DNA from: Verrucomicrobiia bacterium
Lineage (GTDB): Bacteria; Verrucomicrobiota; Verrucomicrobiia; Limisphaerales; UBA11358
Assembly (NCBI GenBank): GCA_035577265.1
Contig: DATLVR010000095.1
Location: 819 to 64,818 of the forward strand
Direction of reading: 5' to 3'
DNA: 64,000 bases
The notes under the pieces were generated by a model. That model did no database searches and was not told where the DNA came from. It saw only the letters and a list, made by a program, of their open reading frames with translations. Each line of letters begins with the position of its first letter. Positions within the stretch are counted from its first letter, which is position 1. Positions 57,836 to 64,000 of the stretch are shown here, in pieces. The position numbers and the translations under genes were made by a program.

Positions 57836-58843
57836 ATGAACTATCAAAAAATCACGCCTTCATTGAAGGTGTTGGGCCTGTTCTTTTTTACCATTCTTAC
57901 GTTTGTTTCCTTGCAGGCGGACACGATCCGAACCCAAACCATCGCCCTGCATAAAGGCTGGAATTCCATTTATCTGGAGGTCACGCCAACGAACCCCAGC
58001 CCGGCTCTGGTTTTTTCCAATACGCCGGTGTCCATTGCCGCGGTTTATTTTGGCGGTGACTCACCGGTGCAGTTCATCCAGAACCCGGGCAGCATTTCCT
58101 GGAAGAAGGACGGCTGGGCGGTGTGGTATGCCCCGTCCCGCCCGGACGGATTTCTCACCACCCTGTTCACCCTCAATGGCAACCGGGCCTACCTGATTTT
58201 TTCCGAACAGGATTTTACCTGGAGCATCAGCGGAAATGTGAGCCTGGGGTCGGTGAAATGGCGGCCGAACTCCTACAATCTTGCCGGGTTCGGCGTGGAT
58301 GCGATGGCGCCGCCGACGTTTGGAAAATTTTTCGCCGGTTCACCGGTGCATCAGCCGGGGCAGATCTACCGCCTGGTGAACAATCAATGGACGTTGATCG
58401 CCAGCCCGTCCACCACGACCATGCGGTCGGGTGAAGCGTGCTGGATTTATTGCAAAGGAGCTTCGGATTATCAGGGACCGCTCACCGTCAAGCTTGCCAC
58501 CGCCGACAGCGTCTCTTTTGGGAGCTCTGCTGAATCACCCATTTCGCTTGAGAATTGCACGGCCGATCCATTGACCGTCAAGGTGGAAACGGTCGCGAAT
58601 GCCGGTGGCATTCCGCTCGGCTATGTCGTGCGTGGCATAACGGAGGGCAAGATGGTGGATGCCACTTTTGACCTGCCGGCGCAATATGCCCCGCCGACGC
58701 TGGAAGCCGGGCAGACCAGCTGGCTCTGGCTCAAATTGCGCCGCGAGAAAATGAGCGCTCCCGCGCAGGGCGCGCTGCTGAAAATTTCCACTGATTCCGG
58801 CGCCGAAACCTGGGTGCCGGTCACCGGCACACTCACCCCTTGA
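57836..58843 (+). CDS. Secreted hypothetical protein (beta-rich, no recognised domain)
   Basis: The likely start is MNYQKITPSLKVLGLFFFTILTFVSLQA, a signal peptide; the ORF track starts at 57779. The mature part begins DTIRTQTIALHKGWNSIYLEV. It lies 18 nt upstream of the next gene. Confidence 0.6.
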   Translation: MNYQKITPSLKVLGLFFFTILTFVSLQADTIRTQTIALHKGWNSIYLEVTPTNPSPALVFSNTPVSIAAVYFGGDSPVQFIQNPGSISWKKDGWAVWYAPSRPDGFLTTLFTLNGNRAYLIFSEQDFTWSISGNVSLGSVKWRPNSYNLAGFGVDAMAPPTFGKFFAGSPVHQPGQIYRLVNNQWTLIASPSTTTMRSGEACWIYCKGASDYQGPLTVKLATADSVSFGSSAESPISLENCTADPLTVKVETVANAGGIPLGYVVRGITEGKMVDATFDLPAQYAPPTLEAGQTSWLWLKLRREKMSAPAQGALLKISTDSGAETWVPVTGTLTP

Positions 58844-58861
58844 CCCGTTTTACCACACCTC

Positions 58862-63300: not shown

Positions 63301-64000
63301 CGACGTTGCGCCGGGATCTCGCGCCGGAGCGCCTCGACATCCTCTCCGCACCCGCCGGCAGCACCGGCGCCGACATGGCCGCCTGGGATGCCGCCGGGAA
63401 AAAATATTATCCCCTGCGTCCGGGAACTGTTTATTCCTACTGGTTCACCGGCGGTGATCCCGCTGAGCGCGTCATCATCAAGCTCAACATCAAGTATCCC
63501 GTCGTGGCGCATTACCGGCATATCGCGAACACCCCGGCAGTTTCCCTTGAGTCGGCCACGAACGACCTCGTGAGCTTCAAGGCGCTCAAATACACCGAAC
63601 CCACGACCGGGGCCGCCGTGGACGCCAACGGCGCCTTTACCGCCACCGGCCCCGGCAAAACCGTCCTGCTCTTTGGCGAAACCAGCAGCCCCGGTCGCGG
63701 CGGCGCGATTGAAACGCTCCGCGTGCGCGTGGTGGAAACAAAAAACTGGAACGACCAGTTGCCGGCGACCCAAACCGCGGTCATTGGCCGGAAAATCACC
63801 AGCGGCTACGACACCGCCGGCCTCGGCACAGGTTTTCTGTTTTTCAAGAATGCCCGTTACAACGTTTCCACTTACAACCGCGACATCATCAGCGGACAGA
63901 TCATCCCGGTGAATTTGAATCCCACCGCCGGCCCGGACGAACAGCTCGTCGTGGTCTGGTATGAAAAACGCGACAAGATTCTCTGGCCGTATCAATCCGT
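60306..64000 (+). CDS. Very large secreted protein with SBBP-type beta-propeller motifs, a PA14 domain and InlB-B-repeat-like modules; partial, continues beyond the window
   Basis: Absent from the ORF track because there is no stop in the window. In my translation, ATG 60306 (MKISRHICQLPASSLLPGWLPLLMVALCAAVLPAMG) is open to 64000, more than 1231 codons. SBBP-like motifs: VVDDSGDVYVGGHLG and ITVDNVGNAYVTGGYG. PA14-like region at ~61215-61500: LTFTSTTDDGSWLYVDGQPVVYDYG...SISLFAGLHSVDWLYFNSGGPGNGSL. Two modules have the pattern R.(G)CTGY...F.I....V.F.W. Confidence 0.75.
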   Translation, partial: MKISRHICQLPASSLLPGWLPLLMVALCAAVLPAMGTPVAGSFVEELQGMIPVDTRVDSSIGTPTAGITYVLGRDFTNSANAILRKYDPSGAELTFANGSTAATISGINPAGMALVSGSTNLYIVGGSTVFRIDTVTGQKTGWVTNAATANSPALSLQSVCCYSNVLYICGNYNSTASLNIFGKTVTPRGNQAGILIKLSAGNLAANALGVLTYGDSDPGSINTANSIVVDDSGDVYVGGHLGTGKFTSDVFNSTEFSVTYRHRSSPAINNLFDAATVLNSALGGTVTQTAQSPLTTMCGIGTPLDNGDYNYIWRETGLINVTAAGALTFTSTTDDGSWLYVDGQPVVYDYGTHPTEAHSGSISLFAGLHSVDWLYFNSGGPGNGSLTVSGGGFASGSCVTAADFANYQNLGYVLKFGGDLASIKNARFTSSAYGDGGDIHELTYAQGWVYAIGDWQIFENSGTLGSGADRSEADSKDIDILKLDTGLQLRGRATVKGVADNTGYGITVDNVGNAYVTGGYGPQSAGFFGAADPTNQPAFQLSSPKQSLFIAQLDSNFNFTWVNKATDPQPNFNFSDKPRVRWNTALQRVFWTGQFDGTLAMGNPTTLQVLTGPKGFIAVLDPSGMFTERVNLTVLSDYGQSGTQIKPFGGPALNTNTVANVGINTKPVIKGAQVTVSVPNYLYRDLNGLDLPTQDDTSAETRIGCTGYAVDENVANGTANSYTFTITKDTLVKFNWLVEHALRINDDFQSTAGSDQDPLNHIAGLQSEASGTPVPSVQKHWIAENEPVIASIDKAVDDQTFLARGLPVRYVVTGYEAYGPANTLSTTTGVTNFIPFVGNEPRQQVPEFLMSAPAGIRYKWKLKIGVQVGTTGFKSAGYPLVHVVGDPGSLPATQPDGVGTGTFYYDENTVLEIGTLKNQGVTQLKGWFNGDGTVFPTTGVLTDLTSSFSNQLYVSKSIAQLKRPARVMWDYGDRIFEETVYIGNPVAFSTVDDTNVYATLRRDLAPERLDILSAPAGSTGADMAAWDAAGKKYYPLRPGTVYSYWFTGGDPAERVIIKLNIKYPVVAHYRHIANTPAVSLESATNDLVSFKALKYTEPTTGAAVDANGAFTATGPGKTVLLFGETSSPGRGGAIETLRVRVVETKNWNDQLPATQTAVIGRKITSGYDTAGLGTGFLFFKNARYNVSTYNRDIISGQIIPVNLNPTAGPDEQLVVVWYEKRDKILWPYQS

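Follow-up and report, generated by a model that had tools for sequence, protein, structure and literature searches.

Giant surface proteins decide what bacteria attach to, be it particles, hosts or prey. The RTX adhesins LapA of Pseudomonas, MpIBP of Marinomonas primoryensis and SiiE have no Sec signal, end in RTX repeats and a type I secretion system (T1SS) signal, and are encoded beside genes of the ABC/membrane fusion protein/TolC type. For proteins of 3,000 to 6,000 residues with a Sec signal, export and retention are a puzzle in most environmental phyla. A preprint on Omnitrophota (West-Roberts et al., bioRxiv 10.1101/2023.11.21.568195) describes giant secreted-protein genes with a Rotamase_2 prolyl isomerase gene adjacent to them. 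Here we analyzed a 64,000-nucleotide (nt) stretch of the genome of a Verrucomicrobiia bacterium (C95:819-64818, contig DATLVR010000095.1, from a 6.18-Mb assembly of 145 contigs), called the window below, at the end of which lie three closely spaced plus-strand genes for exported proteins, g1, g2 and g3, the last of them coding for a giant.

These genes belong to a compact module of three protein families: F0, encoded in this genome by g1 and g2; the giant, g3, with a conserved body of 2,050 residues; and F2, encoded here by a further gene downstream, g4. F0, the giant body and F2 are all uncatalogued, being absent from Pfam, NCBIfam, PHROGs and PDB sequences. From their sequences, we predict that they form a modular cell-surface adhesion or binding complex with swappable heads, a reading to which we give an even chance of being correct.

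Conservation and distribution of the module

Gene g1 (57836-58843, plus strand) encodes a secreted two-domain beta protein of 335 amino acids (aa), the N-terminal half of family F0, and g2 (58862-60286, plus strand) encodes a secreted protein of 474 aa, its C-terminal half. Gene g3 (60306-64000, plus strand) has no stop before position 64000, and the window holds the first 1,231 of its 3,153 aa. A sequence-only reading of this DNA had called three plus-strand genes with gaps of 18 and 19 nt, and its coordinates match the open reading frame (ORF) listing; the peptide strings it quoted are all present in the translations, and its description of the three products as secreted agrees with the one N-terminal hydrophobic segment, with no internal one, that each carries. 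An alternative ATG for g1 at 57779 in the ORF listing would yield 354 aa; the start at 57836 (an MN... codon) is favored by alignment with 38 homologues.

The same reading had left the third gene open in the window at more than 1231 aa, and its remainder could be recovered from another contig. Contig C95 ends 1,708 codons into g3. When the full-length orthologue P0241 (3,157 aa) was compared by tblastn, it matched C95 to its end and then the end of C45, and inside g3 the ends of C95 and C45 overlap by exactly 21 bp. Since the assembly break falls within g3, C95 and C45 could be joined, giving a g3 of 3,153 aa followed by three more genes, g4 to g6, on the same strand.

Homologues show that the first two genes are real. 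They number 298 for g1 and 220 for g2 in a set of 5.8 billion proteins, with E-values down to 1e-240, and all are unnamed or "hypothetical"; those with a named source come from Verrucomicrobiota (Limisphaerales, Pedosphaera), several with adjacent locus tags. The inability of the sequence-only reading to place g1 and g2 in any family was borne out, as Pfam and NCBIfam scans of both returned nothing at E<=1 and PHROGs returned nothing either. When profiles of g1, of g2 and of each half of the g3 body were run against all PDB sequences, nothing above chance level emerged; the best matches were phage tip attachment protein J for g1 (0.57) and designed helical bundles for the body (0.068).

The gene order is conserved well beyond this genome, as a test proposed with the sequence-only reading had asked. 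The order g1-g2-g3(-g4) also occurs on a 6.03-Mb genome and a 176-kb contig, and g1-g2-g3 occurs in every related locus examined. Across a phylum sample of 301 species genomes, in which at most two body candidates were scored per genome, the g1 profile was found in 37 genomes, the body (its last 1,200 aa) in 39 and both in 34; at least 38 of 52 g1-type matches have a body 5.5 to 25 kb downstream on the same strand. We then compared 27 loci of the phylum and 80 loci from the GTDB species collection. The order F0, giant, F2 is kept across these loci, with or without an isomerase and a second giant, and g1 and g2 of the window likewise stand directly upstream of the giant on the same strand, the position that defines F0. 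As judged by these sequence comparisons, the conserved core across phyla is F0, giant and F2.

At least 592 body-encoding stretches came up in a pattern scan that covered one genome per GTDB species. By record title, the best 80 loci come from Verrucomicrobiota of several classes, Kiritimatiellia (including Pontiella), Lentisphaerae/Victivallales, Acidobacteriota (Thermoanaerobaculia), Desulfobacterota (Desulfobacterales, Geobacteraceae) and the Gammaproteobacteria Wenzhouxiangella, Marinicella, Aquimonas and Lysobacterales, taxon names of metagenome-assembled genomes (MAGs) being used as deposited. Four loci (L036, L061, L090 and L097) carry a typical verrucomicrobial module under the labels Klebsiella sp., Akkermansia muciniphila/Akkermansia sp. 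and Candidatus Limnocylindria; these MAGs are probably mis-binned or mislabelled, and the one labelled "Akkermansia muciniphila" comes from a lake. Isolates that carry the module are Marinicella sp. W31 (complete genome), M. pacifica, Wenzhouxiangella sediminis, Luteolibacter marinus, Haloferula sp. and Kiritimatiellaeota strain B1221, and such cultured carriers make it experimentally accessible. In Marinicella, the order is isomerase, fused F0, giant and F2; the genes are tightly packed, adjacent ones lying at most 9 nt apart and in the extreme case overlapping by 4 nt. The genome studied here has a single copy of the module. Another verrucomicrobial genome has at least seven F0-type genes (G065, on contigs C2, C4, C23, C32, C37, C41 and C106), which suggests a paralogous expansion of the module.

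The component families and their genomic surroundings

Gene fusions show that g1 and g2 encode two halves of one protein. In most lineages, including Gammaproteobacteria, Acidobacteriota and Geobacteraceae, the g1 and g2 domains are fused in a single ORF of 500 to 730 aa, and the split form, in which each half has its own signal peptide, was found in the clade of this genome and a few others. This pattern of fusion and fission strongly argues that the two products act together. The sequence-only reading had counted a small protein and a spacer-containing protein as separate components; the genes are indeed separate here, but their products are the split halves of a single F0.

An alignment of 39 g1 sequences shows a signal peptide followed by the conserved mature start RTQTIxLHKGWN. 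The AlphaFold2 model built from it (predicted local distance difference test [pLDDT] score, 87.9; predicted template modeling [pTM] score, 0.82) consists of a beta domain of about 190 aa at the N terminus and an immunoglobulin (Ig)-like sandwich at the C terminus. Foldseek comparison of this model with the PDB returned generic Ig-type folds only (complement/macroglobulin MG, PapD-like/ASH and pilus chaperones), with template modeling (TM) scores of at most 0.27 on the query. The matches of the C-terminal Ig-like domain to PapD-like/ASH domains and YadV (E-values of 2e-5 to 5e-4; TM scores of 0.21 to 0.24) are equally generic.

The g2 model (pLDDT, 87.2; pTM, 0.78) has beta strands in an N block (residues 31-123) and a C block (363-467), and the region between them, residues 132-357 (59255-59932, plus strand), is modelled as a helical bundle with pLDDT mostly above 90. 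We infer from the secondary structure, the pTM and the existence of natural forms without the insertion that the N and C blocks probably make one beta domain. Homologues of g2 fall into length classes of about 350, about 475 and 580 to 617 aa that differ in the middle part, where the alignment has its gaps; consequently, the middle is best described as an optional, variable insertion domain and not as a spacer. The sequence-only reading was thus right about conserved N- and C-terminal blocks, and its Ala/Asn-rich spacer is replaced by a confidently modelled bundle. Within the insertion lies a (GGC)9 microsatellite (59800-59826, plus strand; period 3, 9 copies, 100% matches in Tandem Repeats Finder) that encodes a poly-Ala run and is a possible site of length variation in g2. 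Foldseek found no significant match for the g2 model in the PDB (best E-value, 0.16), and among viral structures (BFVD) the best E-value was 0.012 with a probability below 0.1. Levivirus maturation proteins formed the top viral rows and were not trusted.

The C block contains the sharpest signature of F0, HPTNPFMHRRHTDH (60017-60058, plus strand), a His/Asp-rich stretch at residues 386-399 of g2, about 90 aa before its C terminus. Residues N389, P390, F391 and H393 are invariant in the alignment, and the pattern P(T/V)NP(F/Y)xH..HPDH is found in F0 of 53 loci from several phyla, always 79 to 109 residues before the C terminus. Clustered His and Asp residues that are invariant or nearly so, as here, hint at a site for a metal or a ligand. 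In g2, HPTNPFxHRRHxDH has the spacing HxxHxDH, one residue off the HxHxDH of metallo-beta-lactamases; it stands in a predicted beta-rich block, unlike the alpha-beta fold of those enzymes.

The g2 domain is also found outside free-standing F0. In one genome (G223, contig C133, from L027 2559 to L028 2109), a LamG-rich ORF of 6,516 aa sits between a free g1 gene and a g3-type giant and ends in a g2 domain of about 210 residues that has no helical insertion. Because this giant carries the g2 domain, the domain behaves as a portable module.

For the giant, the last 1,200 aa were searched against 1.84 billion representative proteins, with 1,591 matches at E<=1e-3 and 881 at E<=1e-30. Among the 150 matches listed, lengths range from 1,023 to 5,340 aa and are mostly above 2,000 aa, the shorter proteins being apparent fragments; in nearly all of the 150, the matching region extends to the last residue or comes to within about 50 residues of it. 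When 150 family representatives were aligned to g3, coverage rose from fewer than 45 to more than 115 of them at residues 1000-1100, so that g3 divides into a head of about 1,000 aa, which varies between lineages, and a C-terminal body of about 2,050 aa, which is conserved. In the window, the body begins at residue ~1100 (63603-64000, plus strand), and its bulk lies past the window end. Every body examined ends in DIKLxFxTYSYSGN at the C terminus; the joined g3 of this genome ends in ...NINTHGYSGN, is 76% identical to the query body and counts as a member. Strongly conserved blocks of the body include GNEAY..A..PTIG and PQGHGDAWGHY, and conservation is poor in a helical stretch of about 250 aa. 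Single scans of 42 diverse bodies (22 + 20) found no Pfam or NCBIfam family, and hhalign detected no homology of g1 or g2 to the body.

In the head, the sequence-only reading had seen a PA14 domain, SBBP-type propeller motifs and InlB-B-repeat-like modules, and these fared differently. The PA14-like lectin segment (61227-61409, plus strand; residues 308-368) falls short of the Pfam cut-off (PF07691; 21.2 bits against 24; E-value, 2.7e-4; 68 of 147 profile positions) but is supported by its orthologue, whose segment matches solved PA14 domains, those of a Marinomonas ice-binding adhesin and of 6qdi, at E-values of 8e-5 to 2.5e-4; PA14 was found at 1.4e-8 in other heads of the family. The SBBP motif (PF06739; cut-off, 20.5 bits) is borderline, with 18.3 bits in g3 of the window and 21.5 in P0241, and a Marinicella giant matches an SBBP lipoprotein model at 1.3e-11. 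No InlB B-repeat or Listeria-Bacteroides repeat was detected at E<=1 in either the 1,231-aa window part or the 3,157-aa orthologue. The general description of an adhesin-like protein nevertheless holds, with a variable PA14-like and propeller-like head on a conserved body. The heads of 12 diverse relatives contain LamG (in 7 of the 12, with up to 8 copies), pentaxin, beta-helix, PMP repeats, Big_9, cadherin, PA14, FG-GAP, TSP3, BACON and SdrD_B modules, and no enzyme or toxin family was found in them.

The third family, F2, is represented here by g4, a protein of 880 aa that starts 20 nt past g3 and contains Cadherin_3, an RTX segment with a TIGR03661-type domain, and Calx-beta. The RTX/TIGR03661 segment is internal (residues 391-513 of 880) and lies behind g4's own signal peptide. 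Mature F2 proteins open almost at once with (I/L)xEPxT(V/I)FYG, the form taken by the mature start of g4, ...AQIAEPSTVFYGQ. A hidden Markov model built from the first ~280 aa of g4-type proteins matches g4 at 5e-75. About 50 of the 80 GTDB loci, gammaproteobacterial, acidobacterial and Geobacteraceae loci among them, have the F2 gene directly 3' of the giant; in four verrucomicrobial loci it stands directly upstream of F0 instead. Short F2 forms carry bacterial TSP3 repeats. The LAGC box of g4 had raised the idea of a lipoprotein anchor, which was dismissed as a family feature because a lipobox-like site is present in only 7 of 68 F2 proteins.

With g4 to g6 included, the three-gene operon of the sequence-only reading stands in its genes and their order but grows to six genes, spanning about 25 kb with successive gaps of 18, 19, 20, 24 and 8 nt. 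On C45, where they run on the minus strand, g4 is at 12983-15622 and g6 at 2172-11975 of locus L006. Gene g5 (323 aa, after a gap of 24 nt) encodes a SurA/PpiD-like parvulin prolyl isomerase, with a SurA-like N-terminal region and a PPIC-type rotamase domain above the Pfam thresholds (SurA_N_3, 29.6 bits against 27.2; Rotamase_3, 30.1 against 22.5; Rotamase_2, 29.4 against 27) as well as weak PpiD and EpsD-type NCBIfam matches; its signal ends in LAPGC, which is lipobox-like. Gene g6, 8 nt further on, encodes another adhesin-like giant of 3,268 aa with FG-GAP_2, Big_9, cadherin-like and He_PIG modules. Each of the six proteins has a Sec-type signal. An FYRL-type C-terminal tail is common to g4 (...KQFMRVLLQPR), g6 (...SMFYRAVAQ) and the neighbouring secreted carbohydrate-active enzymes (CAZymes) of the window (...SVFYRLTYP and ...GVFFRLVFP, for comparison). 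The earlier statement that none of g1 to g3 has this tail is correct, and the operon therefore combines tailed (g4, g6) and untailed (g1, g2, g3) exported proteins.

Upstream of g1, a divergent control region (57283-57835) separates the operon from a minus-strand glycosidase gene whose ORF ends at 57282, or at ~57189 if it starts at MNRREFIL. The region spans about 550 to 650 bp, in line with the ~650 bp estimated earlier for a control region facing the CAZyme side, and its G+C content is lowered to 0.51. A consensus scan found no sigma-70-like promoter there, and the region has no Rfam match and hence no riboswitch or known RNA. A scan for terminator-like sites was uninformative (4 found against 5.1 expected from shuffles). 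The divergent neighbour (55768-57282, minus strand) contains the string DIDAMWLRDSSAQVYPY, which may point to the GH125 alpha-mannosidase family.

In many verrucomicrobial loci, F0 and the giant are separated by one to three additional genes, which make up family F1 and are homologous to tail-fibre genes, with matches to Peptidase_S74 (2.8e-14) and to PHROG tail/collar fibre families (1e-21 to 6e-27). Examples lie at L019 3215-4798, L022 3181-5235 and L008 9823-10935; they are chromosomal and have no other phage genes nearby. The window operon has no F1 gene, and its giant has a long head instead.

Function of the module and alternative explanations

In the adhesion complex that we predict, the conserved g3 body would be a proximal scaffold held at the cell envelope, onto which F0 and F2 would dock, the g2 domain serving as a portable module for docking. 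Glycans or other cells would be bound at the distal end, formed by the variable head or, in other lineages, by separate tail-fibre-like proteins, and g5 may aid the folding of the giants after Sec export. The resemblance to accessory, anchor and fibre sets of surface appendages noted in the sequence-only reading is no more than an analogy; no component of the usher, pilin, sortase or secretin type was detected, and there is no sign of a filament.

Several observations weigh against such a complex. Library scans found no outer-membrane barrel, usher, secretin or sortase and no part of a T1SS, type II (T2SS) or type V (T5SS) secretion system in or beside the module. The invariant His/Asp motif of g2 could be a metal or catalytic site and not a docking surface, and either the invariant PQGHGDAWGHY block or the helical stretch of the body could have another activity. 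The grouping of the six genes into one operon is itself predicted from spacing and conserved gene order.

An unlikely but by no means negligible alternative is that F0, the giant and F2 constitute a self-contained outer-membrane export and anchoring pathway for giant Sec-exported adhesins, that is, a new type of diderm secretion. The 2,050-aa body with its terminal ...TYSYSGN would then serve for translocation or anchoring, the g2 beta domain and its His/Asp motif would be a portable docking plug for other cargo (such as the g1 domain or the 6,516-aa LamG giant), and the mature F2 start IPEPxTVFYG would be a third interlocking element. In Verrucomicrobia, such a hub might also hold FYRL-tailed proteins. 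If it is true that the conserved parts form an export or anchoring mechanism, the module would be categorically new.

We consider it improbable that the module is instead a released complex that attacks other cells, in which heads or fibres would find the target and the helical region of the body would insert into its envelope in the manner of large multi-subunit toxin complexes. The size and mixed alpha/beta make-up of the body would suit this role, as would its helical stretch of ~250 aa with the loop motif P.VVG.S.D.TS between well-conserved blocks, and the tail-fibre-like receptor binders of variant loci, the occurrence of up to 7 copies per genome and the presence of the module in Wenzhouxiangella point the same way. 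The genus Wenzhouxiangella has a described predatory member. However, neither the components nor the 12 heads yielded a toxin, peptidase, lysozyme, Rhs or pore-forming family, the body profile matched no toxin chain in the PDB at E<=10, and no helix outside the signal peptide exceeds a Kyte-Doolittle mean of 1.5. Variation is also located in N-terminal binding modules, whereas polymorphic toxins vary in their C-terminal effectors.

It is quite improbable that the module acts wholly inside the envelope, for example as a periplasmic or outer-membrane tether whose heads bind wall or capsule polymers of the cell itself. All parts are Sec-exported with no recognisable device for outer-membrane translocation, a lipoprotein-type prolyl isomerase is present, and small F2 proteins bear TSP3-type Ca-binding repeats, which also occur in OmpA-like wall-binding proteins. 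Against this, head turnover (LamG, PA14, beta-helix and tail-fibre-like genes) is typical of outward-facing proteins, and g4 and g6 share the tail of secreted CAZymes. Furthermore, some species lack the module and others have as many as 7 copies or more, with carriers making up only about 13% of the species of the phylum, a patchiness that argues against a housekeeping role in the envelope.

The window itself brings up a fourth explanation, namely that the operon is a glycan-capture accessory of the adjacent CAZyme array, comparable to the surface binding proteins of polysaccharide utilisation loci. The operon diverges from a glycoside hydrolase (GH) gene across a shared control region, the g3 head is PA14-like, and g4 and g6 have the same tails as the enzymes. 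This explanation is very doubtful because the neighbourhood differs between loci: the orthologous cassette L002 adjoins a Na/H exchanger and a cyclic nucleotide monophosphate (cNMP)-binding gene, and cassette L004 adjoins an ABC transporter, a sigma factor and pilin-like genes. No common CAZyme context was noticed in gammaproteobacterial and other loci, where the neighbours are unannotated, and conservation of the module as a unit does not depend on CAZymes.

Finally, a phage derivation (a prophage remnant or a tailocin-like receptor-binding module) is suggested by the F1 genes of variant loci, whose homology to tail fibres is clear and which encode a Peptidase_S74 chaperone domain. We give it almost no credence, since the window operon has no such gene, F0, giant and F2 have no PHROGs match, the body is encoded by none of 50,697 phage genomes (nor by any of 72,556 plasmids), and no capsid, terminase, sheath or baseplate gene occurs in any locus examined.

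Comparison with known systems

Like the RTX adhesins, the giants of the module are modular proteins of several thousand residues whose binding modules vary between relatives. They probably share with them a PA14-type sugar-binding module, the orthologue matching PA14 of MpIBP at an E-value of ~8e-5, and the operon encodes Ca-binding modules (RTX, Calx-beta and cadherin, all in g4). Unlike the RTX adhesins, however, the proteins of the module all have an N-terminal signal, and g3 ends in a 2,050-aa body that is not RTX. No T1SS genes adjoin the module loci examined, the operon contains no transporter genes, and g3 contains no RTX repeat.

In layout, type V secretion (autotransporters, trimeric autotransporter adhesins and two-partner secretion) comes closer: here too, a Sec signal is followed by an N-terminal passenger or head that varies and a C-terminal part that is conserved, and a small dedicated partner gene adjoins the giant. 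Pfam and NCBIfam scans found no autotransporter barrel, Omp85/TpsB or POTRA domain in g1 to g6 or in the 22 + 20 bodies. The conserved part, at ~2,050 aa with large helical segments, is far larger than a translocator barrel, and the giant ends in ...YSGN, whereas type V proteins have an aromatic last residue. The predicted function is closest to that of the giant Ca-dependent adhesins and the layout closest to type V secretion, and the module lacks the defining features of both.

The defining features of two further systems are also lacking. Chaperone-usher pili are not indicated, g1 and g2 having no Pfam match and no usher being present in any locus examined, and neither are ABC-type toxin complexes, for which no Pfam family was found in the body or the full-length orthologue and no RHS-type neighbour was seen.

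The giants of Omnitrophota and the Planctomycetes-Verrucomicrobia-Chlamydiae (PVC) group resemble the module in having signal peptides and an adjoining Rotamase_2-type isomerase. As described in the preprint (bioRxiv 10.1101/2023.11.21.568195), the Omnitrophota giants differ in being preceded by genes resembling T2SS/type IV pilus (T4P) genes, in being far larger and in having many transmembrane helices; a term search of that text returned no description of F0 or F2 partners or of a terminal body. Our literature search likewise found no description of an F0-giant-F2 module. Annotators now have three signatures with which to recognise it: PTNPFxH..HPDH in F0, about 95 aa before its C terminus, DIKLxFxTYSYSGN at the C terminus of the giant, and IPEPxTVFYG at the mature N terminus of F2.

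A further parallel is with the receptor-binding proteins of phages, namely tail fibres and spikes with Peptidase_S74, which likewise present exchangeable distal modules on a conserved proximal part. Unlike those proteins, the core families have no phage homologue, and the window operon contains no gene of that kind. Heads and tail-fibre-like genes that are swapped on a fixed body would nonetheless amount to a modular receptor-binding design outside phages.

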